Virus record (IMG/VR): IMGVR_UViG_3300028805_000060
Coordinates: 64,001-128,000 of that record
Source: a virus
Lineage: Duplodnaviria > Caudoviricetes
Strand: one strand, 5' to 3'
DNA: 64,000 nt
The notes beneath the pieces are model-generated. The model had not been told where the DNA came from. It saw only the letters and a program-made list of their open reading frames with translations, and did no database searches. The translations under genes were made by a program, and so were the position numbers. Numbering within the stretch: position 1 is the stretch's first letter; each line of letters opens with the position of its first letter. Positions 1,311-63,163 of the stretch are shown here, in pieces.

Positions 1311-1644
1311 ACTCTAGTTCTAACTCCTTTTTGTCCAATGCCCAAGTTATACCAAAGTCTTTGAAATAATATTCATCTCCATTAGGACATATAAAACTTT
1401 TATTTTTAAAATTTAACAGAATATGATTACTTTCACATCCATCATCAAAATATTTTGTATTTTTATCATCCAATGCCTTAACCAAAGTCACTAAATCAAT
1501 TCCAAATTTTTCTTCTATAGTTTTATATTCAAGTAATTCATTTATTATTTGTGAACTCATTTGTTTACCAACTAATCTAGGTAATATAAACGATGGATTT
1601 TTAGATATATTTAAAATATCTTCTTTAGTTAATCTTTTTTCCAT
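1303..1644 (-). CDS. paralog family A small protein (xRLT...EEKxGIDL...GxTWALxKEEL)
   Basis: shares N- and C-terminal motifs with four other ORFs at 1.6-4.5 kb. Confidence 0.7.
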   Translation of the reverse strand: MEKRLTKEDILNISKNPSFILPRLVGKQMSSQIINELLEYKTIEEKFGIDLVTLVKALDDKNTKYFDDGCESNHILLNFKNKSFICPNGDEYYFKDFGITWALDKKELELEYD

Positions 1645-1969
1645 TTTCTAATTCTTCCTTAGTTAGAGCCCAAGTTACTCCATACCCTACTGAACCTTTA
1701 AATGGTAGTGCTACACTATATATAGGTATATTTATTCTAGCTTTTTCTAATTGTAAATTATTTCCTGGAATGAATCCATAATCTTTTGTAAAGATTCCAT
1801 TTAAGAGTGCTTTACCACCTATAATTAAATCAATATTTAACTTTTCTACAACATCTTCATATGCACCAATTATTTGAACTAATCTAATGCCATTTTCCCA
1901 ACCATAAATTTCTTTATTTGGTGCTAATTCATAGAAACCATCATCTCTTTTTTTAGTTATTCTTTCCAT
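1625..1969 (-). CDS. paralog family A small protein
   Basis: ends GYGVTWALTKEELE (TGG Trp); near-duplicate of the 2246..2566 gene. Confidence 0.7.
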   Translation of the reverse strand: MERITKKRDDGFYELAPNKEIYGWENGIRLVQIIGAYEDVVEKLNIDLIIGGKALLNGIFTKDYGFIPGNNLQLEKARINIPIYSVALPFKGSVGYGVTWALTKEELENGKKIN

Positions 1970-2256
1970 CCTGATACCTCTTTTGATAAATCCATATAAC
2001 CTAATACCTCTTGTAATAGATTAAACTCCTCTAACGTCAATCGTTTCATCATATCGTTAGGAATTGCAGCATTATAAACTCCAACCTCCTTACATATAGT
2101 AAGTATTCAAACATTAACTTTTTTCTCTTTAATAATCTCTAATGCAGTTAAGTCTTTTAATACTTTATCTCTATCTTTTAATATTTGTTCATTTTCAGCT
2201 GGGTTTAGAAAACCTAATGCACCGAAATGAACTATTACTAAATCTTTACTTGTCAT
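1957..2256 (-). CDS. paralog family B small protein, 99 aa (code 4; missed by ORF track)
   Basis: MTSKDL...LTALEIIKEKKVNV-TGA(W)-ILTIC...; resembles 3037..3354 LEALEIIKEKQIDTNW. Confidence 0.65.
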
Positions 2257-2566
2257 TCTTTAACTCCTTTTTTGTCAAAGCTCAAGTTACTCCATATCCT
2301 ACTGGACCGTAAAAAGGTAAAGCTACACCATACATAGGTATATATATTCTAGCTTTTTCTAATTGTAGACAATCCCCTGGAATGAATCCATAATGCTTTG
2401 TGATGATTCCATTTAAGAGTGCTTTTCCACCTATTATGAAAACAATATTTAACTTTTCTTCTATATCTTCATATTCTTTCAGTTTATCATAATAATCTTC
2501 AAACTCAAGTTTTTCTTCATCGTATATTTCAAAACCTTGTTTGTTTTTATTTGTTAATCTTCCCAA
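2246..2566 (-). CDS. paralog family A small protein (code 4)
   Basis: likely TTG start at 2566 after a GAGG RBS; GYGVT-TGA-ALTKKELKNDK-TAA matches GYGVTWALTKEEL of its paralog. Confidence 0.7.
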
Positions 2567-2748
2567 TCTAATACCTCTCTTCAAAAATAATAAATATTTC
2601 TACAAGATTCATTTGCATTCTGACAATATTGTATTGCTGCTTCTTTACTATCAGAGATATACATAAGATTTAAATAAGATGATATACTATTCCCAAAAGG
2701 GTCTTTGTATAAAGAATATACATAATACCAAGATTTTTTGTTTATCAT
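2554..2748 (-). CDS. hypothetical protein, 64 aa (code 4)
   Basis: MINKKSWYYVYSLYKDPFG...NIYYF-TGA-REVLDWED-TAA. Confidence 0.45.
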
Positions 2749-3047
2749 ATTAATTCCTTTATTAATTCTTCTAATAATTCCCTTACTTCTTTTGTTTTTA
2801 ATAACACAATGAAATAATAATCATCTCCATTATCTTTATCATTATCGATTTCTACTATATGAGATTTTAATTTTTCTAATATAGTTAAATCTTTTTCAAT
2901 TATATTGTAACAATCCTCTGGACTTACTCCTAAATACATAGGTTTTGCAATTTGAATTTCATTATTTAGATTTTTCCTATAAACTAAATCATTCATAGGT
3001 GTAAAATCATCTAACATAAGTTTTCTTAATGCTTCTTTACTTGTCAT
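2742..3047 (-). CDS. paralog family B-like small protein
   Basis: MTSKEAL...IIEKDLTILEKLK; ends TGA-TAA. Confidence 0.6.
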
Positions 3048-3354
3048 CTACTAATGCCTCTCTTAATAAGCCGTATTCTTCTCGTGTTATTTGTTTATAG
3101 CTAGGAACGCTATTATTATAATCCTTTGATGAATTACAACATTTAAACCAATTTGTATCAATTTGTTTTTCTTTTATAATTTCTAATGCTTCTAATCGCT
3201 TTTTAACGATCTCTAAACATTTAAGCATTTCATAGACATCTTTACAGTCAATGTTTTCTTCTTTGTCAATGTTAAACTTTATTGATTGACAATTCAGACA
3301 CAAAGTATTATCTAATTTTTCATATGCTTCTTTATTACTTATTTTTGTAACCAT
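3037..3354 (-). CDS. paralog family B small protein
   Basis: KEAYEKL...LEALEIIKEKQ...YN...TREEYGLLREAL. Confidence 0.6.
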   Translation of the reverse strand: MVTKISNKEAYEKLDNTLCLNCQSIKFNIDKEENIDCKDVYEMLKCLEIVKKRLEALEIIKEKQIDTNWFKCCNSSKDYNNSVPSYKQITREEYGLLREALVDDK

Positions 3355-3698
3355 ATTAATCTTAACTCCCTTTCATCATTCATCTTTGCTGCATAGATTA
3401 AACCTTTATCAGTCCAGATAGCACCATAGCAATTTCTTGTTTTAAATTGTTGCTTTTTACTATAGTTAAACCAATATATTAATTCTTCATATGTACATAA
3501 TAGTGGGGCACCATCTCCATCATCAAAGACAAACTCATCACATAATTCTTTTATTGAATCAGCATCAGATATAATGTCTTTTTCATTTATTTCATAGACC
3601 CAATCCATTTCGTTATCTTCAGAACTGAGGCTACAATATACAGTTTCTTCAATTTGATATTTTGTTTCATAAATACCATCATTTGTTCTTATATACAT
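3339..3698 (-). CDS. hypothetical phage protein (GAIWTDKGLIYAAKMN)
   Basis: ATG at 3698 (MYIRTNDGIY) overlaps the stop of the upstream gene under code 4. Confidence 0.6.
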   Translation of the reverse strand: MYIRTNDGIYETKYQIEETVYCSLSSEDNEMDWVYEINEKDIISDADSIKELCDEFVFDDGDGAPLLCTYEELIYWFNYSKKQQFKTRNCYGAIWTDKGLIYAAKMNDERELRLIWLQK

Positions 3699-4186
3699 TA
3701 TAATAATTCCTCTTTGGTCAACGCTCAAGTTTTACCATAATCTTTGAGTTTATAAGTGTATCCAAATACACTACTAATAGCAAAACCAGTATCTTTGAAA
3801 TATTCTATGCAAACTATCATAGGACATATTTTTTTGTTATATATACAATAAGCCCATTTCTGTTCTAATGCCTTAAATAATGTAATTAAATCAATACCTA
3901 ATTTTTCTTCTATATCTTCTAACTCAAAAAGTTTCTTTTCGGCAAGGGTTTTATCTTTAATATAAATGTATTCTTTACTTTCAAGTTCACCATTTATGTC
4001 ACAACTTGGTTGAACTATTTTCTTTTCAGTTAATCTTTTCATTCCTTCAAGTTGTTCACAAGATGGAGCAGAAATTTTATTATCTTCCTTCATTTTTGAG
4101 AGCTTTAATGTTAATTCTTTAATTTCTTTTTCTTGCTTTCTACATAATTCAAGAAGATCTTTATTTCTGTTGTCTAATTTGCTCAT
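3698..4186 (-). CDS. paralog family A protein with N-terminal coiled coil (code 4)
   Basis: KDYGKT-TGA-ALTKEELL-TAA versus HYGKTWAFTKEEL in the neighbouring paralog. Confidence 0.7.
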
Positions 4187-7520: not shown

Positions 7521-10500
7521 TTAATTTCTTCGTCTTCTATATCTGATCTCTAAAGTTCCATCTGAATGAACATCTTCAATTAACCCTACAGTTCTTGGAT
7601 AATTAGATGATCTATCTGTTCTGCAAACAAACATATTTTCTCTTCTGAAACCATATACTATAATTTTAGTTCCTCTTTTTAGCCAAGACTGCTCAATTAC
7701 AACTTTCTTTTTAGTGGCAGGATCTATAGAACTAATTTTTTGATTATAAATGTTAAAAATATTAGAATACATTTTTACACTTACAATTCCATATACAGTG
7801 GATAAAGTTATGATATGTTTAGTTTTGTCTGAATCAGTAACAGTTCCTGCAATAGCACAATAGAAAGTATTATCATCACTTGGATTTTCATTTAATTCAT
7901 TAAAATTCCAAATATTATAATATTCATTATTAGTTCCTGCAAGTTCATGTTTAGAGTGATAGAAAGACATTGTAGACATTTCCCATGTAGATTCAGTGCC
8001 AGAACAATATTTTGCAAATAATTCTTCAGAAAATTTATTTCTTTCAAAATCTGCAAACAATTGTCTACCATTCTCTGTATTTAAAAAGCTCATTAATCTT
8101 TCAATTTTTTCTTTATACACTCTATCAAAAGCAGACATTTTTACCCAAATAGATCCATCTGAAAGATAACCAAACTCATTTTTAGTTATATTAAGAGATC
8201 TTTCAATATAATTTGAGAAAAATTTACATGCTAGCTCTGCAGAAATTATATATCTACGATTTTGATTATCTGAACATTCTTTATCCAAATATTTTTTATA
8301 TTTATAGAAACGAATTTCAATCTCATATTCTTCTAAATTCATACCTAAATTCAAAGCCTTTTGAATATTGGCTGTAGTTAATTTAGCTTTCACAGGGAAT
8401 TGATTTTCAGATAAAATTGATAAATATTTTTTAATAATAAATAAACGACTAATTTTTTCTACTTCATCAAAACAGCCTGCTTTAATTAATCCGATCATTT
8501 GAACAGGAGTTACTGAAACTCTATTTAAAAAATCTTCTATAGAAGAGAAAGGTCTCTTCTTAATAATATCTTCGTATAAAGAATCGCTTACAACGTTAAT
8601 AGCAGCTAAACTATAAATAATACTGAAATTCTTTATATCTGGAATAAAATCTTCTTCTGCAGTATTGATATTAGGGAGTTCTATCTTTACTCCACTGTGC
8701 TGTGCATCATCAATCGCTTTTGCAATTTTACCATAGTTTGGAGCTGTACTCTTAGATTTCTTTTCATCTGAAGAATCCTCTTCTTCTGATGCATCATTCT
8801 CTGCTTTATTATTAAGATCTATTTCAACTTCGTCTTCATCATCAGAATCTTCTGAAAAACTATCTATAGAATTGCCTGCATTTATACATAAACAAGCACA
8901 TTGCCAATATAAAGGATTGTAAAAATAAGCTAAATTAAGTTCTTGTAAAGCAATCAAAGAATAAGATATTCCGTGCGCTAAATTAAAACTATAACCTAAT
9001 TGAGGAACTATCATTTTATCCCATACATATTGTCGGAACTCTTGCCTTCCTCCTGGGTTTGAAAAATAATGTTCTTTAAGAGCTTCGATTTCGTCAATAT
9101 GCTTTTTAGCAACTGTTTTTCTTGCTTTATCAGAATCTTTCAAACTGAAAGAAGAAATGCCTGGATCCATTAAAATTCTCATAAGATCTTCTTGAGAATA
9201 AGCAACGCCATATTTATCAAGAACATATTTCTCTAAAATTTTCTTTTCATTTTCTGTTAAATTATAAGAATCCATTTCTTCGTACCAAAGATTAATGTTA
9301 TTCTTGAATCTAACATATCTATCTACTGGTGATTCATCTCCAGGTTCAACCTGTAGTCTAATTAAACCATTTACAGCTGATAATTCAGCTACGGAATGAG
9401 GTCTCATTTTATTAACTCCTACTTTTCCTACTGAAGTATCTAACTGGAATATATCACTATATTTATTATCATTCAAGTTATCCCACATTTCTTGATTATC
9501 ATAATGCAATACACTTGGATGAAGATATTTATTATATGTTTCTCTTAATGAACCTTGCCATGTGATTGTTCCATCTTTTAAAAGAAGTTCACACGCTTTC
9601 ATTAACTTTGATTCAGCTTCAGTTCTTAGTAAGTCAAATTTTAAAGCACCCATATCATCAGAATCATGCATATTAAAAGCTGTAATCGGAGTCCCGTTTG
9701 GAGCTGTCATTAAACTATTTTGAGAGAGGAAACCATTCGTAAAAATATAAACTGCAGAAGCATGTATACTTGGATTCATTGATAATCCTTCTATCTTTTT
9801 AACTGCTTCAAAAACGCCAGGATATTTTTTTAATTGATTCTCAAATCCAGGAACAGGTTCATATCCTTTTTCAGAATCTCCTTCAAGACAATCTTTTAAA
9901 GTATATGTAATACCTCTTTTTGAAGGAACTAAAGAAGTTAAATTTTGAGCATCATCATTATTATATCCAAGACCTTTCATAACTGTTAAAATTGCAGCTT
10001 TTAAAGATTCTGTTTTAAAAGTAGCGCAATTTAATACGTTATCTTCTCCAAAATATTCTTTAAGAAGTTTAAGGATCTCTTCTGTTTTGTCAGGTGAAAC
10101 ATCTATATCAATATCTGGTAAAGCATCTGCTCTAGCCTTATTTAAGAATCTGAAGGAAGGAATGTCATAGTCTAAAGGATTAACTTGCGTAATTCCTATA
10201 ATATAGTTAATTAAGAAACAAGCAGCACTTCCTCGTGCAACACCTAAGAAAGATACTTCCCAACAGATGTTGACAATTTTTTGAACAAGATTCAAATATG
10301 CACTAATATCTTGTTTTAATTCACCACTAATATAGAGAATTACATCCAACTCTTCATTAATTCGAGATGCAATATCTTTGGTAATTAAAATATTCTTTTC
10401 AATAATTCCTTTTTCAATAAGATAAATTAAGTATCTATTTTGTTCAACTGAACTATAAGCAAACTCTTTTATAAAAGGAAATTCTTCATACCAATCTTTT

Positions 10501-11429
10501 AATAAATGTTGTAAAGTGAATGATTCTAATTTTAAACACGGAACATTAGTTGGCATTCGAAAATCATATTCTTCAATATTTTCTGAGAATGAAACCGTAT
10601 TTTGGAGACATGTATCAATTTCTTCTTCTGTTAAATTTGAGAATTTTAACATTTCTCTAATTTCATCTTCTGGCATTACATATGTATACTTGTAAAACTT
10701 TTCAGTTTCACGATCAGACGATTGTTTGCTGTTCAAAAAAGCTGAATGAATACCAAAATCTTCTTTATCTAAATAATGGCTATCTGTGGTAACAAGGTAT
10801 TTAACTCCATAATATTTAGCCATTTTTACAAGAATTTTATTAACAGTTGTTTGTTCTTCTGAATCCGATGGCTGTAATTCTAAGGCAAAGTTTTCTTGTC
10901 CAAAAACCTTAATTCCCCATCTTATAAATTGATTTGCTTCAGGAACTTTATGTGCTAAAATGTCGCAAGCAAGTTCTCCTCCTAGGCAGGCCGATTGTCC
11001 GAGAACATGACCAGGATTCTGACCAATTATTTCTTCTAGATCCGAATAGAAAGTAGGGCATCTACGAAGTCCTTTTTGAACATATGATCTTTTCCACGCT
11101 CTAGATGATAGTTCCTTTAATTGATTCCAACCAATAAGATCTTTTGCTAATAAAATGAAATGATAATAAACAGGGTTATTTTTATAATCCTTTTCATCTA
11201 TAAGATAAATTTCATTTCCAAAAATGATTTTAAAATCAGGATGCTCTTTTTTTATTTCATCTCGAGTTTTTAATGCTTGTATAGCTGAAGAGAGGCATTC
11301 GTGGTCTGTAATAGCAATTCCTTTATAACCTAATTCAATCGCTTTATAGATTAAATCCTCTGTTTTTATAATGCAATCAAGCATTCTTATATTTGATTTT
11401 TCAGTATGATTGTGTAAACTAACAAACAT
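7521..11429 (-). CDS. dnaE: DNA polymerase III alpha subunit (C-family, DnaE-type), 1302 aa
   Basis: PHP motifs SLHNHT, AITDH, TTDSHY; RGSAA, PDIDID, HASAV, KFDLL, GYSFN. Start moved to ATG 11429 (AGAGGTGG RBS) because the ORF-track start lies in the promoter. Confidence 0.95.
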   Translation of the reverse strand: MFVSLHNHTEKSNIRMLDCIIKTEDLIYKAIELGYKGIAITDHECLSSAIQALKTRDEIKKEHPDFKIIFGNEIYLIDEKDYKNNPVYYHFILLAKDLIGWNQLKELSSRAWKRSYVQKGLRRCPTFYSDLEEIIGQNPGHVLGQSACLGGELACDILAHKVPEANQFIRWGIKVFGQENFALELQPSDSEEQTTVNKILVKMAKYYGVKYLVTTDSHYLDKEDFGIHSAFLNSKQSSDRETEKFYKYTYVMPEDEIREMLKFSNLTEEEIDTCLQNTVSFSENIEEYDFRMPTNVPCLKLESFTLQHLLKDWYEEFPFIKEFAYSSVEQNRYLIYLIEKGIIEKNILITKDIASRINEELDVILYISGELKQDISAYLNLVQKIVNICWEVSFLGVARGSAACFLINYIIGITQVNPLDYDIPSFRFLNKARADALPDIDIDVSPDKTEEILKLLKEYFGEDNVLNCATFKTESLKAAILTVMKGLGYNNDDAQNLTSLVPSKRGITYTLKDCLEGDSEKGYEPVPGFENQLKKYPGVFEAVKKIEGLSMNPSIHASAVYIFTNGFLSQNSLMTAPNGTPITAFNMHDSDDMGALKFDLLRTEAESKLMKACELLLKDGTITWQGSLRETYNKYLHPSVLHYDNQEMWDNLNDNKYSDIFQLDTSVGKVGVNKMRPHSVAELSAVNGLIRLQVEPGDESPVDRYVRFKNNINLWYEEMDSYNLTENEKKILEKYVLDKYGVAYSQEDLMRILMDPGISSFSLKDSDKARKTVAKKHIDEIEALKEHYFSNPGGRQEFRQYVWDKMIVPQLGYSFNLAHGISYSLIALQELNLAYFYNPLYWQCACLCINAGNSIDSFSEDSDDEDEVEIDLNNKAENDASEEEDSSDEKKSKSTAPNYGKIAKAIDDAQHSGVKIELPNINTAEEDFIPDIKNFSIIYSLAAINVVSDSLYEDIIKKRPFSSIEDFLNRVSVTPVQMIGLIKAGCFDEVEKISRLFIIKKYLSILSENQFPVKAKLTTANIQKALNLGMNLEEYEIEIRFYKYKKYLDKECSDNQNRRYIISAELACKFFSNYIERSLNITKNEFGYLSDGSIWVKMSAFDRVYKEKIERLMSFLNTENGRQLFADFERNKFSEELFAKYCSGTESTWEMSTMSFYHSKHELAGTNNEYYNIWNFNELNENPSDDNTFYCAIAGTVTDSDKTKHIITLSTVYGIVSVKMYSNIFNIYNQKISSIDPATKKKVVIEQSWLKRGTKIIVYGFRRENMFVCRTDRSSNYPRTVGLIEDVHSDGTLEIRYRRRRN

Positions 11430-11460
11430 AATCCACCTCTTATTTAATACCTCTAATAAA

Positions 11461-11489
11461 ATTATAGATGCTTTTAGAACAAAAGTCAA
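11461..11489 (-). promoter_or_regulatory. sigma70/sigmaA-type promoter of dnaE
   Basis: TTGACT-N17-TATAAT. Confidence 0.8.
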
Positions 11490-15863: not shown

Positions 15864-18800
15864 CTATGAAGTCGAAACTGGAACCGTAATAGAAGTAGAC
15901 ATGTGAGTATAAATTGAATCACTTAAATCTGTAAGAGATAAGTTAAGAGAAATAGGAATGTTTGGACCTATCCAACGGAAATCTCCTTTATATTGAACAG
16001 GGTCTTGTTCATTACCCTCTGCATCTCAATCTACAGACAATCTAGAAGTAGCTCGTGTTCCAGATAAATTATCTTCCATAATTGCTTTAACAGGGAATTC
16101 AATTCCATCGTTTATATCTCCTCATGTAATTGGTAGAACAACAGTTATATGCCCGACATAAAGACCGTTGATACTTATATGAGGAGAACTTTCTGTATCA
16201 GCTTTAGGGTATCTATAAGCTACATCTTCAGGAATAACTTGACCTTTTACTAAAACAGGAGAAGATTGCTGAGAAGTAGCTAAAGAAAGACCATAACGTA
16301 AGCTCGTTTCTTGTGATACAGTATATGAACTATTTTTATCAATGCAAGGGACCTTAACATTGTCAGAAAAAGTACCAACTTGAGTCATCCCTTGATTAAC
16401 ATATGAAATTTTTAAATTAGAGGCAATCTTAGTTTGCGTTCCAACTAATGTAGGAATATTAATTACACAACTTTGTACCCAATATGGATAAATAACAGTA
16501 TGACCTTCAGCAAGAACAGGAGAAATACTAGAAAGTTTAGTTATAGATCCCACAGTTTCGTCTACTTGACAAGAACTTCCAACTGACACATTATTTAAAA
16601 CGACATCTTGATTATTTAGAACTCCTGAAGAAGTTGTTAAAATCCCTCCTAAGATGGCTTCCATAGTTATTCCATTTCAATTAGGGTAAATTACCTCTTC
16701 TGAATCAATTGAATAATATCGTATTGTATAATTTATTGTTTGTTCATCCTTTTGTAGACTAATTGAAGTGCCTTTTCTTTCAAATAGGTCATTGCAATTT
16801 AATACTGTAAATCTCTCTCCATTATTTTGTGTAAGACAAGATTCTTTGAGTAAATTATACTTCAAGCTATATTGATTTGCCAAATAATATCCTTGATAAG
16901 AGATTTTCCTATTAACTTCTGCTGTTTTAACTAATCCAGAACCTATTACTCTAGTTGTAGAAACAGTGATAGATGAAAAACTAAATTGTCTAATTATTTG
17001 TTCTGATGTATCTAAATAAGAAATGGTACCTCTCGAATTTCCAATTGATTGTAAACTCAAGATCTTTTTATTTGCATCACCATCTTTTAAATAATAAAAT
17101 ATAGGCCCCGATCCTGATCCTGTAGAAAGAGGTGAGGATGAAACAACATGTAAATTAACTGTTCTTTCCCCCGTCCCTGATAATGTTACTCCTGAAACAT
17201 ATAAACTACTTATACTAGAAGAATAAGGATAAGAGGCCCCCGCAATTTGAATTGAGCTATTGCTATTATCAAGGGCTTCACTGAATACTCCATATCTTTT
17301 ATTTGTTTGTGTTACGACATCTGTTTGTGGATAATTTTCCCCAATACAGAATAAATATGTCGCTGTATCTGCTACAGCATTTATTGTCCCAAAATTAATT
17401 CTTGCCTCTTGACTCTTTGATCCAATACAATATATATTGGTTTGTTGTCCATTATCTAGAATCATTTGAGCTCCATCAATTTCTAAATGATAACCTGAAT
17501 TAACAACAGCATATCCATACACCGTGTCCTCACTGAAAGTATGCCCACTTGGATATCCTCAAAGAACATTATTAGTATTAGCTAAATAAACTTGAGAAAT
17601 TCCTGTCCCTGCAGAAATTGTTAATCCTTGCATCTGAACACAAGAATAATTTTGATCTCCTCCTCCATTAGAAATAGTCATATCTTGGGTTATGTTTTCA
17701 AAATCTTTTCCCTCGTCCTCTCATCATTCTGAAGGGTCTATAAGATGATCTGCATCTGGTGTAATTTTAACTGTTAAATTACTGCCTTTTTTAATTAAAA
17801 GATCATTTCATCCTAAGTTTCTAAAATATGTTATTTCTTCTGAATTAGTTATTGGATCTACATAATTTACTTTAATATTGTCAACACCATCAATTAATTT
17901 TATTGATATTAGTGTGCCATTAATATCTTTTTTCCCATATTTAAACCAATTGTAATTACAAGAATTTCTTCCAGGGAGATTTCCTAATTCAGATCAGATT
18001 AAAGTATTATTTCCAACGGATTTAATTTCTTTCCATGAAAAATTAATAGTGTCAGGTTGATCAATAAATTTACTATAAGGAGTATTCGAGCTTGAGAAGA
18101 TTTGAACAATTCAACTTTGTCCTTTATTATCTTTCAATAATTTCGGATTCTTTGAAAATGCCATATTTCTTCACTGCTCTAACATTCTTATTTTTTCATT
18201 GGTAGATAATGGCCTATAAACACCATTTTGTAATCTTTCAATATATCCTAGAGATGTATAAGGAATGATTTCAGATCCCAATAAACAGCTTATATCTCCA
18301 GAAATATAATTTTTAGTTCCAAAGCCTACTTTTGAGTAACGGCCTAAAGTTTCGATTTCATTCTTAGAGAAATTCTGTGCTTGTTGCCCATATTCTGCAT
18401 TATATTTAAATACCCAAATATTGTTTAAATTCGCTTTAAACTGATTTTGAATTATTGGTAAAGTCCTATCTGTAGTCTCAACAGGAATTAATTCTGTAAG
18501 GCTCCAATATTGTCAAGAAGGAGTAAATATATCCCCTGACACGCTGCTGTGTTTAGCATCTATGTCCTTTATACCATACTGATTTACAGAAATATTATTA
18601 ATTTGAGTATAAAGAATATACTCATAAGAGTATCCACTCTTTATATTAAAATCTCGGAATGATTTTTCTGAAGAATTTATTATAACAGGTTCTCAATCTC
18701 CAATAACAAATTCTGTATCTAATGAATTAAAAGAATTTTTATATTGTTCTCATTGTCTTCTGTAAACAGAATAAATAATTTCTCCTTCATAAATCTCTTC

Positions 18801-21644
18801 CGTTGTAGAGTCCATAATATTAAATAATATTGATTGAGAATCACAATCTATTTCCCCTACTAAACGAATAGGTGTATCTCCTCCTGATGAAAAATAAACT
18901 TCAAAATCAATCGTCTTTTCTAAAATTTTTCCAAATTCATCTGTAACTAAAAGTGTAGCAGAATATTTATTTTTATTATCTAGTTGACTATTAGATAGAC
19001 CATAGAAATTAACTTTAATCTCTTTATCAAATTGCTCCCCTGTATCTTGGATTACTTCTCCATATGAATTCTTTAAAATCCATCTATAGGATTCTCAAGA
19101 CGCTTTTTGTTGTTGATGATATTCACCTGTAAATTCAATTCCTCTCTTGTCTACACTACCATATTTAAACGGAGCATAATTTGAGTCAATAGTTAAATAT
19201 CCTTGTTCATAAATAGAAAACGGGTTTTCATCACTGTGTTTGAAATAACTTCGAATTTCATATTTATAAGGAACATTTGGGTCATCAGGATCTTGAGAAG
19301 GTATAGTCCCTAAAGTTGAATCATAAGTTACTTTTCATATAGTTTTATCTAAAGAATTAATTCTGATTCATTGAGTTTTATTGTCTCCTTCTCCAACGTA
19401 TCCATTTATTAACTTAATCCTTTGCCCTTTTTCAATATACTGATATGGAGAAATCAAAACCTCTCCGTCCGTATTATGTAGTACTTCGGTGTCATATTTA
19501 TTATATTGAACAGTTGAACTAATAGACCAGCTTGTATTTAAATATTTATATACAGCCCCTGTATTACGCCCTTTTTTGATAGCCATGAAAGTATTATTGT
19601 CCTCTGGTCCATATGTTTTTGTTATTTCTCAGATGAGATTTTCATTTGTATCTAATACTGCTTTTAATAAATAGGCTGATGCATAATTTCACGTCCCTGG
19701 TTGACCGTCTCTATAACAAACGTAGCATAAATCTCCTAATTGAACTTTTATCCCATCTATTTTATCTGTTGGTAGCAACAAAAGAAGAGAATTTATTATA
19801 GGAAAATAAATAATTTGAATAGCATAAGCAACTGCACCTGTAACAGCATTAAAAGTGATTCTACCTAGCTGTTGATCTATTTGAATATTGGTAGTGCTCC
19901 CCAATATATCTTGGACATAAATATTATAGCCATCCTTTGTTGGTACATCAACAGTAACTGTTTGAGTTTGGAATGTTGCAGATATTCTTTCTCCCATTAT
20001 TATATCATAAAATTGACTAAAAGTATAAATATTTTCTGATTTATTATTGAAAAGAACAAGAGGGAGTTCTTCTATCCAATAGAGAGGAGAATCCGCAGAT
20101 TTATATTGAGATGAATTATCTGTATAAAATAAAGTCCCTCCTACAAAAGCTTGAGATTGATAATTTTTTCCTCCATTTTTTTCTCCTGAAATTATAAAAA
20201 TTACTTTTCCCAAAAAATCTCCTCATTTAGCATAGCTCCCAGATCTTTTCCATGGAGCATCTCTATCATAAATATAAATTCCATTCTCTTTTGGATCATC
20301 TTGGTCTTTTACTAAAATTCTTTCCCCATTTGACAGAGAGTATCCATCTATGGCTCCTAAGCCAGGATTTGTTGGAGATTCGTCGACATACAAATTAATA
20401 TTTGATGTTGTGGCACAAGAAACTTTATCATTATCTAATATATATTCAGGGTTATTGCTATATTTATAAAAACGAGCATATTTTGCAATGTTTACTTCAT
20501 CTAAAGACAATTCTCCTTCTCTTGGATAAACGTGTCCTAAAGTAGAATCATATGAATTCACATAAATTCTGCTTGACACAATATTCGAACTATTTGAATC
20601 TGAATCTTCTGTAAAAAGTTCCATCCAAGTTCCTTGAAGCACAACAGGATTTTCTGAAGAAAAAGTTGGAATCATCCAATTTGGAGTAATTTCATCTCCA
20701 AAATTTTTAGCAATTTGAATTCTTTTAGTAGTTGTTCCTAAAATTTTTCCTGAAGAAAGGGTCATATCAAATCAATCATTTGACAAATTATCATAATTAA
20801 TACGATGCTCAATGATTACTCCCTCTCCTTGGAACAATTCTATTGATCACTTGTATGTTTTATTTTCAGTAGAAAATTCTATCTTATTACCTAGAAAATC
20901 TTCTCAACCATATTCTGTTGTTTCTTTAAGAGCTGGTATTGAAGTTTCATTTTCATCATATTCATATACTTTCCCTCCATACTGACCGCAAAGAATTAAA
21001 ATTTTCTCTCCTTCTTCCATATCTGAAAAAGTTTTAACAGGAATGAGACATTTACCTTCTCCTACTTGGAATATTCCTCCTATCGAATTTAATTGAAATA
21101 TCATTTTTGGAACTAAGACTAGATCTCCTACAGATACTTTATCTTGATTATTATTTATATAACCATCCCATGAAGATTCTCCGTCAACAAAATATTCTAA
21201 TTGAGGATTCCCTTGTTGATTATAAACAAGTTGCCAATTTGTCGTATCTGCTAAAAAATAATTAGCTTTATAATTAACAGAAAAATATACTGCATTATAA
21301 GAATCTAATTTAGATTCAGAATTGATATTCTGAAAAAATGGAATATATAAAAAAGTTCCGTTAATTCCTGTATTTGAATCTTGTTCATAATCTTCAGGTA
21401 AAAAATTTTGAAGTTCAGATACTGGGCTTATATATTTGTCCGAGTCTTTACTTGGAAAAATTTCATTATTGTTTTCATCAAAAATATGGATTCTATAACC
21501 TGTTATATTTTTATTAGATGTATTAATTTTACATTTAAGCCATTCAATATTAGGAACATTAGGACTTCCTATAATTTCAGGTACAGTTCTAATATCAATA
21601 TTATTTAAGAATGGATAACAAAATGTTGGTTTGTAAACTGCCAT
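15864..21644 (-). CDS. large distal-tail/baseplate structural protein (code 4, ~1926 aa)
   Basis: six ORF-track fragments in one frame joined by ~22 TGA codons with no TAA/TAG until 15864; contains RILVKDQDDPKENGIYI and a Dit-like segment (PKLLKDNKGQSW...INFSWKEI); directly after the TMP. Confidence 0.75.
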
Positions 21645-41147: not shown

Positions 41148-44100
41148 ACTGGCTGTAGTCGAATATCAAATAAATAAGTATGAGTACTATTTGAAAAAGT
41201 GTCAGTATAATAACCTGCTCCTCCACCAATACTCGTTTTATATGCAGCTAAATAACGTCCATTTTTTGATGCTACTTTAAACCATAAATATCTAAAGGTT
41301 GAACCTGATGCCCCATCTGCTAAACTTACCATTGGGGAACTATACGTCCACGTAGGATTAGCTGAAGAACTTGGATTCGCGCTTTGTATTTTTACATCTC
41401 CATATTTAGATTCCAAAATATTTATGGTTCCTTGATGTGATGAACTATATCCTAAATAATTAATATTTATCTGCCCATTATTTGAACTGTTTCCTAAATA
41501 GTTAATAGTCCTTGTCCCTGTCATATAAGAGATACTACCAGTATTACTATAAGTACTTATTGATCCTGTTCCACTTAAAGTTGTAATTGATCCATTGTTT
41601 GCAAGAGAAGTTACAGTTTTTCTAGATGGGATTGTACCTTCTAAAGCTTTAAAATAAATATTTGAGCCTGTTTCTGTATTTCCGCCTATTCTTACTTCAC
41701 CATATGTATTAGTAATTATATTAACGGTTCCTTTATTACTTGCATTATATCCATTATTAGAGATAGTCAATGTTCCAGAAGAACCCGATCTTCCTAATGT
41801 AGTGATGGTCCTTGATCCAGTCATATTAGTAATAGTACCAGTATTTGTATAAGTACCAATGGTTCCACTACCTGAATAAGTACCAATAACTGAGTTAGCA
41901 CTATTAGTAAGAGTGGTAACTGTTGTTTTATAAGAAGAGTTATAAGAATAAATAGATAAAGATGGAACTGTAAGTGATTGTTGAACGGTACTGCCCGTTA
42001 TATTATATCCTAAATTTATACTATTAACTTGAGTAACATTTACGGTACCATTGCTAGAACTGCTTGTAACCCCAACAGTACTATTAGAAACATTAGTTAT
42101 ACTAATCCTTCTATATGTATTATTATTGATTGTTAAATATGATGTAGTATCATAAGCTGTATCATCTTTCATATCAACTGCAAATGGAACATCTTGTGGA
42201 ACAGTTATTTTATTAATATAATATTTACTTCCTGTAAGAGAACCTGAGGTATCACCATAAGTCCCAGTGGCAATCCATCCAGCAGTAGAAACAGAATAAT
42301 TTCTTGATACACCTGAAGCTGAAGGTTCTACATATATTCCATTATTTGTGCTTGTAAACGTAACGTTTGCCTTGTGAGAATCATCAATGGAAATAGTACC
42401 ACTCGTTGTTGATGATGCCGATCCACTATGATTACTTACTGCCTTAATTGTATAATATCGTTTTGATACATTATAACCTTCAGGAAGGTTTAAATATTGA
42501 TCTCAAGTACCAGGAGTAATATTTGCTACAGAACTACCTGACGCTGTTGTGCTTGAAGTACTTGTAGGTAAATTTATTTGATTTAATAAGCCATTTAGAT
42601 CCGTAACTGTTATATATGAAGGATCGTCTAAAGAATCACCATAAGGAATGGAAATTGCACATTCTTGCATATCAACGATTGGAAAATCTGGATAATATTC
42701 ATTATATATTTTAATTATTCCATAGTTACAAGGGACATTTAATTCCCCTCCTGTTTCATCTTCAGCTCCAATATAAACAGTTAAAGTTTTATCAGGTTTA
42801 ACGAACAAATTATCAATATACTTAGGTCCAAAAATAGCACTTCCGTATGTCCCTGTAGAAATTCATCCTGAAGTACTAACTGTATATCCTCCTGAAGAAG
42901 CACTGATTGATATTCCAGAGGTATTAGTGTCAGATAAAGTAGCATGACCAGCATAGAGAGTATTTGATCCTGAAGACCCTGATTGACTTCTCACAGTATA
43001 ATTCTGAACTGTTCCATTATTAATAGAACTAATTCAACCTGCCGTTCCTACGCTTGCTGTAGGTGTAATTTTAAAGTATTGAGAAGTAACTGAAGTAGGA
43101 GAAGTTCCTGCTGAGCTTAAAGTAGCATAAGACGCACTTGGAGTAGCTGCACCTGCTCTAACTGTTGCAGTTGCATAAGCTGCAACATTAGTTGAAGTTG
43201 ATTGTGTCAACTCAATATTTCCTGTAGGACCACCTAATGTTTTGTAATACCTATCGCTGTTATAATAACCAGCTGCTAACTTATATGTTGTTCCTGCAGC
43301 TAATTCTGTAGGAGTTGTTCCTTGAGGAGCTGTTGCTGTTCCTCATGTAGCAGTTGGAATAGTATAATATTGGTCTTTAGAACTTGCATTAGCTGTTGCT
43401 GTTGCTGTTGAGCTAACAGTTTTTTGAGTACTACTTGTAGAAGCATCAGTATAACCTTTTGTTCATGTAATAGTACTTGATTCACCAGCAGTCGAAGAAC
43501 CTGTCGTAGCACTATTTCCACCCGTTGCTTTAATATAATAACCTGAAGAAGGTTGAGATGAAGCAGCTGTTAATGAAATATTACCTGTAGCTGAAGCAAC
43601 AGCTGTTGGTGTTACTGAAGGTGAAACCGATAATGAACTATCACTGACTGAAACTGAACTTGAATCAATTGGGTAATAAGCAGTAGTAGAATTAGCCGCT
43701 GCAGTAGCCGTAGCTGTCGAAGTAATTGTTTCTGTTCCTTCTGTAATATAGCCAGTAGTTTTTGTTACTGTAGCACTTTCTCCACTAGTCGCACTACCTG
43801 TAGTAGCTGAGTTCCCACCGACAACGCTGATATATCTACCAGAAGTTGGTTGAGTGGTTGTTTTAGTTCCTAAAGTAATGCTTGATCCAGTTGCACTTAC
43901 TGTTGCTGTTGGTGTTACTGAAGGTGATACTGATAAAGATTTATCGTCTATTGCTACACTTCCAGCTGCAATTTTACCTACTTGTGTGGCTGTTCCAGCT
44001 TGAACCGCTCCAGAATTTGTAAATCAACCAGCTGTTCCTGCAGTAATAGTTCCTTTAACTTTTGCACTGACTGGATAATAGCCAGAAGCAACAGTACCGA

Positions 44101-53380: not shown

Positions 53381-54982
53381 TTATTCAAATAGTAAATCTA
53401 TTTCATTATTATTAATTTTTGATTTTTTATCAACTTTTGCAGACAATAAATCGTCCGTTTCTTGCTTATTATAATAATTTATTAAGTTATCAACATCTAT
53501 AGTTATATAACCTACATCATTCTGTAGCTCACTTAGTTTTTTAGGCATATAAATGTTAAAAGAGTTAGAATAAATAACATCTCCATTGTTAAAATAAGAG
53601 ACATTTCTGCTTCATAAATACTCGTCTTCTAATAAATTAGGTTTTTCATTCGTTCACGCAATTTTAAGGTCTAGTAAAAGTTCTTTTTGATCTTCACCCA
53701 TTGCTATAAATTGATCTTTTCCATAACATAAACCATAGAGACCTTTTTGATCATCGTCTCTATAGCTCAATGAGTAAATTCTTCCATTAAAAGATTCTCA
53801 AATTTCTCCTCGAGAAGTTTGGACATTCAACCATGTAATATACCATCTTCCTTCTCCTCATACAATATCCTCTATCAAAAGATTCGTATTATCAGGAGTT
53901 GTAGGAACATTCCAATTATATCCATTTGTTGAATATCTGAGTTCATTTTCTCCTCCTAGGACAAAAAGATTTCCTCCAAAATATACATATTTAATTGCTT
54001 TTGTAAAAGACGGATTTGACTCTTCAACTCATTTTTTCCCATTAAGAGAATAAAGAATTAATCCACCATCGCCAACAGCAATATATTTTCCTTTACCAAA
54101 ACATACAGCATTAATCTTAGATAAAGTTCCTGTATTAATTTCAGTCCATTCTTCTCCATCTAGACTAACAGCCATATAGCCATTATCTCCTACGATGAAA
54201 AATTGATTATTAATATATTGAATATTTCTTGGAGTCATTGAAAATTTTTTATAGACAGTCCATTCTATTAAATCATATGATTTATAGATTGTTCTTGTTG
54301 TAAAACATAAAGCCAAGAAGAATCCATTCCCAAAACAAATTTTATTAATTGTTGTGTTTGTAAAAGGATTTTCAATCTCTGTTCAATTTTTTCCATCAGA
54401 ACTGTAAATAACAGCCCCTTGCATCCCTACTAACACATAGAGATCTCTTCCAAAACATCCACTAAGGAAACGCTTTGAAGATGGAAAAGCACAATTTTCT
54501 CAAATATATTCTTCTGAAATATTTATAGGAGATTTAGATTTTGTATATTGAACTTCAATTTGGGTAGTATTAATATCTTGTTTAATATATCCTGCATTTT
54601 CAATAGATTGAATTTCTTCTTGAATTTCATCCAATTCTTCAGAAACATTGTCTAAAGTAAAACTTAATTCAGAGACAGACGTTTCTCCATCCCCAATTTT
54701 TATACCATAGATAGGTTTACCTTCAGAAGTTGTTTGATAATCTGTATAAATAATAATATAATTCTTAATTGGGACATAACTCGCATGAGTATTCCAATAC
54801 TCTGTAGTCCCATATTTTATCCCAGCAAATCCAGTGTGTCCACTGCTTTCGTAGTCGAGTTCAGTTAGCTTACTGTGCTCTGTAGTGCTCATAGAAGTAA
54901 TTTCAGCTGCTGTTTCGATTTCAATTTCGGCTGAGAACTCATCGTCCGTAGTAGGGACATTAACATAATTTTCTATCGACAT
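53381..54982 (-). CDS. tail-associated beta-propeller (Asp-box/BNR repeat) protein (code 4, 533 aa)
   Basis: repeated SxDGxxW boxes, several with TGA as the W; N-terminal IKIGDG fibre motif. Confidence 0.7.
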
Positions 54983-56400: not shown

Positions 56401-58331
56401 TAGAGATCCTCCATTTGGCTCAATGTGAATCAATCTCTCAATCTAAATTCTTGTTTTCTTTCTTTTGAATAATTTACTTCAGGAGTTAAGAAACCAACAA
56501 TTCTTTGATAAGAAGTCACTTTTGGACCTCCACAAATTGGACATAAATTTCCATAAAAACCATGATTCTTACTACAAGAACTTATTCTTGTGCAAAAAGC
56601 AAAATAAGGAATTTCCATATCAGCAATTTTATTTAATAAATCCCAAGCCATATCAAAATTTGTAAATGGAGACTCTAAATTCACATGGCTGATTGATCCT
56701 CCACTACAAGCCTCGTCTAATTGAGAGCTACATGATAATTTATTGTATAAAGAAGTCTTAACCCCCAGTGGAATCCATTGATTTCCGTATAAAGGTAAAT
56801 CATAGCAACCATCTTCGAACAATAATTTATCTTTTTCTTGCAAAATTGTTGCACATCTTTCAGCTGGAACTTGTTCAATATTAATTTGATAATCAAGTTT
56901 ACCATCTGCTATAAATTGATTTTTAGTATCAGTAATAACTTTTAAAATTTCTTGAGCAAAAGCTAACCCTTCAGATGTATAACGAGCTTTCCCAAATTCA
57001 TCAACCTCTGTGCCCCCTAAATATTTGATGCATTCCCAAAGAGCACAAATTCCAATCGTAGAGTATTGAGATTTCAAATGAACTAGACCTAGAGAATAAT
57101 TTGGTAATAGACCTTTGTCAATGTTGCGTTGAATTATATGTCTAATAACATCTAAAGTTTTTACACAAGTAAGAACTCTTTCTTTTAGCTTTTCTAAATA
57201 TTTTTCTTTATCTTTCGTTTCATAAGCAATACGAGCTAAATTAATAGTATTAACTTTAACAGATCCTACTTCTAGAGCAGTACCTCCTATACTATTAAAA
57301 TACCCTAAATTATCAATATTACTAACTAATCTACAGCAGTTAGAAAGACTTGTAACATCTTCACTAATAAAGAAGTTTGAATCTGCCCATGTCATGTTAT
57401 GATTGCAACACCACTTTGCAAAATCTTCATCTACAAACTTACCATCTATACGTAAAAGAGCATAAGTCAATACTGGGAAAGTCATCATATTTTGAGATCT
57501 AATTTCACTAACTTTTCTCATGAAAGCTTTTTGATATTCGATGAACTCTTCTACTTCGTCAATCATCATTGTCCCATCAGGGAAAATCAATCCACCAAAT
57601 AATGCTTCAATATAAGATCTATCAAAAATTGAAAAATTAGTAAAAGCAGATTGAGTTACTCTTAAATAAGGCTGATTTAATTTGTAAATAATTCTCTGAA
57701 ATTCTTGATCCCTGTAATATTCTGGAGAAATAATAAAATAATTTTTTTTACAGTCATTTTTCCAGAAAAAATAAGAATAAACAAGGAAATTAGGGAGGCC
57801 TACAGCTCCACTTGTTCTGTTACTTAGCCAAGACACTGTTTCTCCAACAAAATCCGTAAAAGTTGTCAGATGTTTTGGGGGTTGTGCGTTAAAATTTGTA
57901 ACAAAGAATAATCCTTTGTCAACAATTGGCTTTAAGTCATACGCATAACAGTACGATTTGAGGGAAGAAGAATATGCATCATGCAGATAACTAGCACCAT
58001 TCCATTCATCTTCTGCCCATCTTTCTGCTTGAGGCAAATCATATTTTTTCTTTAATTCAAAAAAAATCTTATTTAAAGCTAATAGTTTTAAATGAGGTTT
58101 CATCATTTCATTCTCTAAAGTTGTGACATCTTTATGACCTATGTTAGCATTAGCATCTATACTTGCATCTGCTGTATTTTCACATTTGTCTACAAAGTTG
58201 TCTATAAATTCTGTATGGTTCATTTGTTTTTCACTTAAACCATTAAGTTCTAACATCTTTTCTCCATACTTCTTTTTCATTTTTTCTATAAAATTTTCAA
58301 AATCTTTATCTAATTTAATATCTATTTTCAT
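56400..58331 (-). CDS. nrdD: anaerobic (class III) ribonucleoside-triphosphate reductase
   Basis: YLHD, YCYAY, SNCCRL, EQVPAE, CSGGSISH, CPICG, RIVGF glycyl-radical motif; C-terminus RLRD-TGA(W)-FTLSQMEDL-TAG. Confidence 0.95.
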
Positions 58332-59266: not shown

Positions 59267-60283
59267 TTATTCTCCTTTTGCTTCTTTTTCTTTTTTAATT
59301 ATAAAATCTTTAAAAATATTATTTAATCTATCTGATACAGGAGTATCGTCATATATTTTAATTAGTTCTGTACTTTCTCAACTAAAAATTAATCTAATTG
59401 CTTCATCAGGTAAATTCATTTGTCTTAAATAACTACAGAAAAAATGTCTTGCTGAGTGAGCATAGAATTCCAACCCGCAAATTTTTGAAACTTTTTGAGC
59501 AAAAGTATTCGCAGTGCTAATTGTCGCAGGAATATATTCTCCTGCTTTTAAAGAAACAAATAAATATTCTGAATTAATATTTAATTTTTTTCTCTCTTCC
59601 ATTCACAAAGTAAAGAATGGCTCAAAAAATTCTTTAATAACATATTTATGAATCATTTTACCTTTCTTGCCGCTTCCTTTTGATCTGACTTCTGAAGTAC
59701 AATACATGTATCCATCAAAGACTTCTTTTTCAGGAACAAAATCTGATACCTTCATTTGAATCAATTCAGCTTTTCTAGCTCCCGAAGCGCAAGCTAAAGC
59801 AAAGTAACAAGCAATTTGATACTGTTTTAAGTCAACTAGTTGTTTTAATATCTTTTGAACTTCTTCCAAAGACAAAACTGTCTTTTCTCTCGTAGGTGAA
59901 ATACGAATAGGATCTAAAGTCCTTACAAGATTTCGAAAATGAGGATATTCTTCTTCATATAATAGCTCTATTTCATTTGATAAACTGCTTAAAACAGATT
60001 TCAAAGAAGCAATTCTATTAGCACTCATTCCTAATTCTCTGCACCATCCAAAATAATAAACAAAATCTCTTTTTTTAATATCTGGAAAATTTTTATCAGA
60101 GTTATTTAATAAATTTCAACAGAAGAAGACTTTTAATCATTCCTCATATTGATGAATTGTTTGAGGAGAACAATCTTGACTTTTACAGTAGAGGAGATAA
60201 TCTTGAACTAATTTTTTATTTGTTGAACAAACATTTTCATATTGAGCAGTTAAATTCTTATTGTAAACTGTTGATCGTCCCAT
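59267..60283 (-). CDS. tyrosine recombinase/integrase (code 4, 338 aa)
   Basis: N-terminal SAM-like region, GARKAEL (R), SKG (K), HSARH, IFS-TGA(W), IKIY (catalytic Y). Confidence 0.88.
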
Positions 60284-60292: not shown

Positions 60293-60967
60293 CTAATTTT
60301 TTATTTGATTGAGCATATCAATTTCATTATTACACATTGCAATAGCATGTGGAGCTTTTAATGTTTTGATATGTCTCTTGATTTCTTTTATCTTATCATT
60401 TATATCTCTGTTTCATTTAACATCGAAGAATGTTTTAGCTAAAAATACCGCATCAGATTCATCGTATGTTATGTCAGGAGATAATGAGTATTCTTTAACA
60501 ACATACATTTTAATATCATCCTTAGTAATTTTATCATCTTTTTTTCTATTTGTCAAGTTTTTAAAATAAGAATGAGTAGTTATTGGATAAATCCCTACAT
60601 TATCATATGTTGCAATATTATTCATGAATAAATACAAATCTAAAATTGCATGTGCTTTTGCTAATGCCACAAAAGTCTGAATAGTAGAACTTTTTCCTGC
60701 CCTGATTTGAGCAGGAACAGCTTCAAAAGACACAACAATATCTTCTTTTTTAATTCCTTTTTTAAATAATTTTTTGAAAAAAGTGTCAATTTCATTATAT
60801 AACCCCATCACTGGTAAGTCTTCATGTTCCGACACACTGAGTATCGCCAGATCTAGCGGTTTTTTAGCATTTATATCTCATATACAAACCCCTGTAATTC
60901 GGCTTGCTAAATCAAACATTATTAAATATTTATATGTCAAAATATTTTCTTTAAATTTAATAAACAT
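60293..60967 (-). CDS. RuvC-like Holliday junction resolvase (code 4, 224 aa)
   Basis: MFDLASRITGVCI (first acidic motif), VSFEA, ITKDDIK, DESDAV. Confidence 0.75.
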
Positions 60968-60975
60968 TATTCCTC

Positions 60976-61524: not shown

Positions 61525-61548
61525 AATGTAGCCTCCATATTAAATGTT

Positions 61549-61579
61549 AAAAAAAGGATCCCTCTTTCCAGGGATCCTT
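61549..61579 (-). terminator. rho-independent terminator
   Basis: AAGGATCCCT-GGAAAG-AGGGATCCTT followed by a T tract. Confidence 0.8.
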
Positions 61580-61593
61580 AATTGTTGTGTATT

Positions 61594-61842
61594 TTATTCT
61601 TCAACAATTTGAGCTTCTTGATCTAAAACAGATTGTTGATTTTCTTCAGCATTCATTTCTTCAACATTCTCTACAACCATGTAAGCTCTTTCTTCAGGTT
61701 TTTTGCCTTTCTTTTTATTTTTCTTTTTTTCTTTTTCTTCTTCTTGTTTTTCTAATTCTAGAAGCATTTGTTTTTTCTTTGCTTCTTCTTCTCTTCTTTT
61801 TCTAGCTGCCGCGTTCTTTGCACGTAAAGTTGCTAAATCCAT
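61594..61842 (-). CDS. highly charged hypothetical protein
   Basis: ORF track; GGAGG RBS. Confidence 0.55.
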   Translation of the reverse strand: MDLATLRAKNAAARKRREEEAKKKQMLLELEKQEEEKEKKKNKKKGKKPEERAYMVVENVEEMNAEENQQSVLDQEAQIVEE

Positions 61843-61843
61843 A

Positions 61844-62263
61844 CTATTCCTCCTTAGCTTTATTCTTAGCCAATTTTACTTTCTTTCCTTCTTTCGAAGC
61901 TTTAGTCATGCTATTGAAATAATCAATTAATTCTTTAATATATGCAATTACTTCTTTAAGAGTTTCTTCATTAATTTCGATATGCATTTCTTCGCATTCT
62001 GCTTTGATAATATCAATTGCCATTTGTTCTTTTTCTTCAGAACTTCCACCTGTTGTTTCTGCTGCTTTGGTTGCAACCTCAGCTATCTTCATAATTTTAG
62101 CCCAATCTTTTTCTTTTATTAATTCTTTAATTTTTTTAAATAAAGCTAGTGCAGTAGGTACTAAAGCAGATATTGCACTAATTAAGCCAATAAGTAATGT
62201 AATTAATCCAACCCATCCTTCAACTGTTGATGGCCATATACTTAACATTGTAAACATTTTCAT
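61844..62263 (-). CDS. phage holin, LL-H-like
   Basis: single N-terminal TM helix, then IAEVATKAAE...GSSEEKEQMAI...IEINEETLKEVI. Confidence 0.65.
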   Translation of the reverse strand: MKMFTMLSIWPSTVEGWVGLITLLIGLISAISALVPTALALFKKIKELIKEKDWAKIMKIAEVATKAAETTGGSSEEKEQMAIDIIKAECEEMHIEINEETLKEVIAYIKELIDYFNSMTKASKEGKKVKLAKNKAKEE

Positions 62264-62275
62264 TCCGCTCCTTTT

Positions 62276-63163
62276 TTATTTTTTATCTTCTATTTGTAAC
62301 CCTGCATTTTTTAACAAATTATTATATTTTTTAAAATCAATATATTGCCTAAAAGCAGAGGAAAGTTGCCCTGATAAATTTGGGGCAATAATATTTACTA
62401 AATTCAAAAAATTTTTACGAGTTTCTCCTTTTATAACCTCTCCGTTTTTGGTATTTTTGTCAAGGTATCCAAAAACAAAATCTTTATCATTGTTGACACA
62501 AACAGTCTGTTTGCCTCAACCCGAACAAATCTGGAATAATGATCCATATTCAGAATCACTTAGAACTTCTCAGTTACCAGAGGAAGATAAACCTCGAAAA
62601 GTTTGTTCATATAATGGACCCGATAATAATTTTGTTCACTCAGGTAAAACAATTTTAGGATCTGAAAATAATAATAAATTATACCCAGAATATTTACTAG
62701 AAAAACCTAAATTCGTTATTTGGTTATTATTAACTAAGATATTATAAGGACTAAGAGTAGTTGAACCAAAGGAAATATCATAAGCTAAATTTGTATTAAT
62801 TGTATAAAAAATCCCAAGCGGATTTGATATTTTACTATTTATGTTTGATTCTTCAAGAATTCTAGCTAATTCATAAAAAGAAATTTCTTGACCAGGCTGA
62901 TAAGTAAAAATTTGTTCTTGTTTTAAAGAAGTTCCTCTTTCAACAAATAAATCTTCAGAGATTTGTTTATATGATCCTTTTCTTAAATACAATTCTGTAT
63001 CATTAAAAAGAATTCTAGGGATTTGAGCTTCTCTTGCATTTAATTCTCTCTGGGAAATATAAAATCAACAGTTCTCTCCTTGCTGATTTTTCCCTTGGAT
63101 TAGTAAAGGGGCATCATTATACCCAGTAAATACATTTCATTGTAAATAAAATATTAGGTTCAT
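62276..63163 (-). CDS. hypothetical protein (code 4, 295 aa)
   Basis: ATG 63163 to TAA 62276 via 5 TGAs; includes ORF 62636..62992. Confidence 0.6.

Follow-up and report, generated by a model that had tools for sequence, protein, structure and literature searches.

TGA as a tryptophan codon, mainly in the late genes of a complete 144,870-bp phage genome

Interrupted reading frames in the window

The window analysed here is a stretch of 64,000 nucleotides, bases 64001-128000 of one 144,870-bp contig (IMG/VR virus record IMGVR_UViG_3300028805_000060), a phage genome of 31.6% G+C that is 100% complete according to CheckV. The minus strand carries nearly all window genes, including every feature whose window coordinates are joined by two dots below. 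A set of genes spanning 1625..63163 contains in-frame TGA codons, 96 of them spread over 26 of the 55 minus-strand genes; the genome-wide count is 168, or 28% of all Trp codons. The original prediction for this DNA held that TGA is read as tryptophan (genetic code 4) throughout, and the reassignment itself is borne out by coding density, by internal paralogues and by the alignment columns of homologues.

Under translation table 11, the window holds 101 non-overlapping genes called from open reading frames, with a mean length of 176 amino acids (aa) and a coding density of 82.7%, compared with 60 genes, a mean of 343 aa and 96.0% under table 4. Reading TAG as sense (table 15) led to a density of 86.3%, no gain comparable to that of table 4. 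Over the whole genome, 247 genes at 85.8% (table 11) become 189 genes at 93.9% (table 4). The gain under table 4 is well outside anything expected by chance. TGA is the sole stop that interrupts the frames, TAA and TAG never doing so, and all genes of the recoded set terminate at TAA or TAG once TGA is read through; termination of this kind had been predicted and is true of every gene in the window. That there is no recoding, the interruptions being broken genes or assembly errors, can be practically dismissed: nothing except the interrupted frames under code 11 speaks for it, whereas the interruptions are all TGA, fall at conserved Trp columns and, once read through, raise the density to 96%. 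Annotation with table 11 fragments the virion genes, terminase, portal, fibres and recombinase, whereas table 4 renders the window 96% coding.

A virion or tail protein of 1926 aa (15864..21644) contains 22 TGA and 15 TGG. Another 13 TGA lie in an open frame that resembles a tape measure (1292 aa, 21809..25687). An HNH/homing-endonuclease-repeat protein with 2 TGA (25864-26937) lies between two pieces of the tape-measure region. The metallophosphoesterase (Metallophos; 35133..36083) has 3 TGA, two of them upstream of its GHWH motif, and the tyrosine recombinase (59267..60283) has 4, with the TGA at 59378-59380 located 9 residues before the catalytic KIY tyrosine. Two genes served as internal controls, DNA polymerase III alpha (1322 aa, 7521..11489) with 0 TGA and 15 TGG, and a Pnkp-like kinase-phosphatase-RNA ligase (758 aa, 36122..38398) with 0 TGA and 7 TGG. 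The latter, of the tRNA repair type, adjoins the phosphoesterase, which is NinI-like.

Pfam and PHROGs domains extend across the TGAs in Metallophos, the tyrosine recombinase, a PD-(D/E)XK nuclease and NrdG. Restored motifs had been claimed for these four and for RuvC; no RuvC was found among the TGA-bearing proteins scanned with Pfam and PHROGs. In NrdD, the TGA at codon 634 (56430..56432) is ambiguous between stop and Trp. The Pfam NRDD match ends exactly here, and reading past the TGA adds a 9-residue tail up to a TAG that abuts the GGAGGA-GTG start of NrdG.

The residue encoded by TGA

Repeated and duplicated sequences within the window allow TGA codons to be compared with their counterparts, and the copies cited in the original prediction are all present. 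The TGA in GYGVT-x-ALTKKE (2282..2284) corresponds to a TGG in the paralogue GYGVT-x-ALTKEE (1670-1672), while that in YGKT-x-ALTKEEL (3725..3727) corresponds to W in two aligned paralogues. A fibre repeat reads KVKGTITAGTAG-x-FTNSGAVQAGTA with TGA (AG-TGA-F, 44024..44026), where its sister repeat has TGG (SG-TGG-F, 44936-44938). TGA and TGG alternate at 4 further repeat positions of the fibres, so that TGA occupies 5 positions at which sister copies read TGG. Likewise, 7 TGA occur in a propeller protein that contains Asp-box-like repeats (53381..54982); TGA there supplies the W of SxDGxxW (54383-54385 and 54029-54031), the repeats YSSDGKN-TGA and YSLNGKK-TGA neighbouring TGG copies. Among self-paralogues, TGA was found opposite TGG/W at 3/3 well-aligned positions, a tally that is small, and noisy outside the YGxTW family.

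PDB sequence searches with the phosphoesterase and the recombinase yielded short alignments covering few TGA positions, and homologue sets were used in their place. The large terminase, encoded outside the window, contains 8 in-frame TGA. In six IMG/VR relatives (55-63% identity) with a terminase free of TGA, 6 of these 8 columns are invariant W. When 150 homologues from an exhaustive HMMER search were aligned, W was the commonest residue at 6/8 columns (e.g. 88/93, 63/91 and 48/79), followed by Y and F, with Ser and Cys near absent; Gly was the top residue in just one, a variable column. One of these W columns, W59, is invariant over 15 terminases at 30-61% identity.

A genome-wide comparison was made with a syntenic sister phage, IMGVR_UViG_3300029705_000055 (hereafter G001). 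W was found opposite 42 of the 75 aligned TGA codons, a rate similar to that of the TGG control (86 of ~140), the other residues including Y 6, I 5, G 2, S 2 and C 0; a predominance of Gly or of any other residue opposite TGA, which would have spoken against tryptophan, was not seen. In terms of composition, TGG alone gives the late genes a Trp content of 0.65%, compared with 1.2-1.4% in early genes, and TGA + TGG brings this to 1.21%. As four independent tests, namely the internal copies, the terminase columns, the sister-phage comparison and the composition, agree, we conclude that TGA is a Trp codon in this phage.

It could be argued that TGA stands for a residue other than Trp, whether Gly (code 25), Ser via a tRNA with a long variable arm, or Cys/selenocysteine (Sec). 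The phage tRNA with anticodon UCA, described below, lends this some appeal, as ARAGORN labels it 'SeC' and its D-arm and long variable region resemble those of class II tRNAs. Indeed, tRNAs with long variable arms are substrates of seryl-tRNA synthetase (SerRS; PMC5389517). This alternative is nevertheless scarcely credible given the residues found opposite TGA in G001 and the near absence of Ser and Cys from the terminase columns. Furthermore, the tRNA has a 7/5 acceptor/T-arm layout as opposed to the 8/5 of tRNA-Sec, the Rfam tRNA model outscores that for tRNA-Sec, and a selenocysteine insertion sequence (SECIS) element for each of 168 TGAs is impossible. Any code that assigns Gly, Ser, Cys or Sec to TGA is excluded.

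Distribution of TGA, related phages and the code of the host

The recoding had been described as genome-wide; while TGA as Trp stands, its use across the genome is uneven. The ratio TGA/(TGA+TGG) amounts to 0.047 for the early block on the plus strand (5.7-41.5 kb of the genome) and 0.080 for the minus-strand replication block (41.6-78.5 kb), but reaches 0.465 among late genes (Fisher p = 2e-29 for the block difference). The 10,212 codons of the plus-strand early block include 143 TGG and 7 TGA, and several of these 7 either serve as stops or precede a more probable start. The TGA-bearing set is mainly late, comprising virion, tail, fibre, terminase, portal, homing endonuclease and phage RNA polymerase genes. 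One such polymerase is encoded outside the window (genome 1862-4819, plus strand), a 985-aa protein with 7 TGA that matches RdRP (PF05183) and is a single-chain RNA polymerase of the YonO or crAss type; with 7 TGA, it would be producible only after a switch of code.

In the early blocks, 3/18 TGAs fall within the last three codons of a gene, compared with ~0.27 expected if the 18 were placed randomly (Poisson p ~0.003). All three overlap the ATG of the next gene (ATGA) and are followed by a TAA within 0-2 codons, and these three early genes look like genes that retain TGA stops with a fail-safe TAA behind. At 2742..2747 in the window, where a TGA overlapping the next gene's ATG (ATGA) is immediately followed by TAA, a retained stop with a fail-safe TAA is likely. 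There is no gene in the genome in which TGA is the only stop. One or more of the early TGAs must be read as sense, because homology to paralogues runs on at both sides. The early genes are thus written to work under either code, and the late genes under code 4 only.

Relatives of the terminase in IMG/VR and in the bins of metagenome-assembled genomes (MAGs), at 55-63% identity, reveal three coding types when taken together with the TGA-recoded present phage. Those in genome contigs and MAG bins were found with a narrow alignment. The standard code is used in the sampled late region of L007, L012, L032, L035, L036 and L040, while L008-L011 are TAG-recoded, with 10 in-frame TAG in the terminase. 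G001 (133 kb, 43% G+C; loci L024-L030) contains 204 in-frame TAG, and its density rises from 89.9% to 96.1% under code 15. It encodes a tRNA(CUA) at c110262-110335, 25/77 of its TAGs lie opposite Q of the present phage, and it reassigns TAG to Gln. The two proteomes share 55 high-scoring segment pairs at 21-80% identity, and both phages recode a stop in late genes and have the suppressor tRNA gene within the same cluster of tRNAs. In contrast to the present phage, the TAG-recoded sisters, G001 included, keep TGA as a stop. A TAG-recoded gut siphophage type of 133-136 kb has been published in the form of phAss-1/Phassvirus (PMC10607447). With sister phages on TAG-to-Gln or the standard code, the TGA switch is recent, and sisters with TGA-to-Trp, TAG-to-Gln and the standard code offer a clean three-way comparison, useful for the question of how quickly and why phage codes switch.

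Two terminase fragments, P0062 and P0007, were considered as closer TGA-recoded relatives and rejected, their contigs being standard-code or too short. Certain terminases of the relatives are themselves unusual. In L040:3001-5238 (bin Clostridium sp. CAG:343), the gene is broken after ~residue 100 by ~110 stop-rich codons, which may represent an intron. The standard-code terminase of L032:10001-11347 and L033 ends at a TAA after 448 aa, compared with 637 aa in the present phage, and this gene may be split or intron-interrupted. G001 also carries a pair of tRNA-like genes, 91 and 78 nt long (c111705-111795 and c111554-111631; Rfam 43 and 24 bits) that ARAGORN does not call, the 91-nt gene having an insertion around the anticodon region.

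The original prediction had left two options for the host, one with a Mollicutes-type code and one with the standard code infected by a recoded phage, and the second fits better. The nearest cultured terminases are all from Bacillota phages, the bins with relatives carry labels such as Bacilli, Clostridium sp. CAG:343 and Lachnospiraceae, and prfB, the gene for release factor 2 (RF2), is present in one relative's bin. On the basis of the TGA-poor early genes, the codes of the relatives, the Bacillota terminases and the prfB-containing bin, a standard-code Bacillota host is favoured.

It is very improbable that the host itself uses code 4, as a Mycoplasma or Spiroplasma type would, with nothing in the phage recoded relative to it. 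The low G+C content is compatible with such a host, as is the Bacillota/Bacilli affiliation of the nearest cultured terminases and MAG bins, since this wider group contains the Mollicutes. However, a host of this kind does not sit well with the 7 TGA against 143 TGG in the plus-strand early block, with a tRNA(UCA) of the phage's own, with sister phages on code 15 or 11 that use TGA as a stop, or with RF2 in a relative's bin. In Mycoplasma and Spiroplasma, code 4 applies to the whole organism, which has lost RF2 and uses TGA as its principal Trp codon. The present phage shares with them a UCA-anticodon tRNA that reads UGA as Trp, but it avoids TGA in early genes and uses it for only 28% of Trp codons.

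The phage tRNA(UCA) and a proposed translational timer

No tRNA genes are located within the window. The earlier remark that no tRNA-Trp(UCA) is visible therefore holds for the window but not for the genome, which contains six tRNA genes clustered at 45.4-47.7 kb, inside the TGA-poor block. ARAGORN, run on the whole genome, identifies one tRNA with anticodon UCA (genome c45455-45554, 18.4 kb outside the window), the sole UGA reader among the six. It forms a complete 7/5 cloverleaf with the conserved tertiary positions and an encoded CCA end, bears G73 and A1-U72, which are marks of bacterial tRNA-Trp, and has a variable region of 27 nt. Over its full length, it is matched by the general Rfam tRNA model with 53 bits, the extra bases appearing as a variable-region insertion. 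Set against tRNAs from a Bacilli MAG, the acceptor and anticodon arm are like those of tRNA-Trp(CCA), while the D-arm resembles tRNA-Gln or tRNA-Ser equally. An origin as a converted tRNA-Ser was considered and rejected: a pattern combining a Ser-type D-arm with the UCA loop found nothing in IMG/VR, and the D-arm is equally tRNA-Gln-like. Bacterial tryptophanyl-tRNA synthetase (TrpRS) depends on G73 and the anticodon. In this context, a tRNA-Gln with anticodon UCA reportedly inserts Trp in E. coli, a finding attributed to Rogers et al. in 1992. Borges et al. argue to the same effect (10.1101/2021.08.26.457843).

IMG/VR was searched for further long-armed tRNA(UCA) genes with a first pattern constrained solely by the UCA loop, the T loop and GGGG. 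This identified 15 loci, 14 of them tRNA(UCA) genes with lengths of 93-100 nt. Among these 14, the variable region of 13 folds into a 5-bp hairpin with a 7-nt loop, C/G-U-CCA-AA, the anticodon loop of tRNA-Trp. A broader pattern yielded 59 such tRNAs, 49 of them distinct (loci L061-L143, e.g. L064:737-832 and L072:1069-1165), while the reversed arm order gave 24 pattern matches and 0 tRNAs. Pairing within the extra helix is seen in 92.7% of cells, compared with 52.6% in shuffles (shuffle maximum 60.8%), RNAalifold predicts it independently, and compensatory changes occur at all four pairs. Within the family, G73 is present in 49/49 members, A1-U72 in 37/49 and G1.U72 in 8/49. Coding density increases by 5% or more under code 4 at 37/46 flanking loci, and several family loci share genes that flank the tRNA cluster of the present phage.

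The phage tRNA(UCA) has a canonical UCA arm, G73, A1-U72 and a long variable region in the same position in common with this family, with up to 77% identity to its members. It differs in that the 5-bp helix is not formed: 3-4 pairs are present in 46/49 family members, compared with 0/4 in the phage tRNA, where only an outer GAC/GUC stem can form in the variable region. Nevertheless, it aligns in register (MAFFT), with GUCCAAC in the position of the family loop xUCCAAA, a 6/7 match. It may thus be a degenerate member of the family, with the helix decayed and the loop motif kept. A suggestion we put forward tentatively, regarding it as possible though somewhat improbable, is that the only UGA reader of this phage belongs to an undescribed two-armed class of suppressor tRNA, in which the UCA arm decodes while the CCA-loop hairpin serves as a TrpRS identity handle in a standard-code host. 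Through this handle, the host TrpRS would still charge the tRNA. Literature searches turned up no account of suppressor tRNAs that bear a second arm of the anticodon type, an absence that is no proof of novelty. If correct, the two-armed family could explain how the TrpRS of a standard-code host serves a reassigned codon, and the decayed handle in the present phage would either amount to a natural experiment on the need for the handle or indicate that this lineage took another route. A design based on two anticodon arms would also be of interest for genetic code engineering, and we regard the tRNA architecture as the part most worth following up.

Taken together, it is highly probable that this complete genome belongs to a phage of a standard-code host that uses TGA as a Trp codon, mainly in its late genes, with the tRNA(UCA) gating a translational timer for these genes. 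In such a scheme, the host would use the standard code, and the early genes would be translated at once. The phage tRNA(UCA) would be produced next and receive its Trp from the host TrpRS, and only after this would the TGA-laden late genes be fully translated. The need of the late genes for charged tRNA(UCA) would make the code switch a timer, as Borges et al. have proposed for recoded gut phages (10.1101/2021.08.26.457843).

Certain observations weigh against this scheme. Replication genes also contain a few TGAs, for example that of the PD-(D/E)XK nuclease, and a gate on timing would therefore be leaky or graded. Searches of the phage genome found no TrpRS gene and no release factor gene. 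The variable region of the tRNA(UCA) forms 0/4 pairs of the hairpin of its relatives, and its activity is therefore not assured; in principle, the long variable arm could also attract SerRS.

The missing hairpin pairs and the lack of TrpRS and release factor genes would also fit a reading in which TGA, although it encodes Trp, is decoded mainly by near-cognate host tRNA-Trp(CCA) or through a phage-induced change in the host, the phage tRNA(UCA) being weak or vestigial. Suppressor tRNAs are, moreover, found in just 35-40% of recoded phages (Borges et al., 10.1101/2021.08.26.457843). We consider this unlikely, given the full cloverleaf, tertiary positions, encoded CCA and 53-bit Rfam score of the tRNA; furthermore, with 22 TGA in one gene, leaky reading would yield almost no full-length product. 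Decoding by the phage tRNA(UCA) remains the preferred explanation.

TGA-to-Trp recoding is a phenomenon already known in gut phages, of which the present phage is a further example. Recoded gut phages use TGA-to-Trp or TAG-to-Gln in structural and lysis genes while replication genes remain in standard code; they have further been described as carrying suppressor tRNAs, as differing in code between members of one clade and as having lost TGA stops (10.1101/2021.08.26.457843). In common with the Agate, Jade and crAss-like code 4 phages, the present phage has TGA-to-Trp in structural/late genes, standard-code replication genes, a phage suppressor tRNA, clade mates on codes 11, 15 and 4, and few or no TGA stops. 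The length of its genome, within the 154 +/- 27 kb of Agate phages, and its TGA-bearing homing endonuclease would fit the Agate clade. In contrast to the Jade phages, it lacks their 'code change module' of TrpRS plus release factor 1 (RF1), and the 27-nt variable region of its tRNA is unusual compared with code 4 gut phages.

A sigma-70-like sequence, TTGACT-17-TATAAT with 11/12 matches, is present outside the window on the minus strand (genome 46022-45994), ~360 nt upstream of the tRNA-Gly(CCC) and tRNA(UCA) pair. As regards the timing of tRNA expression, this predicted site is only a lead.

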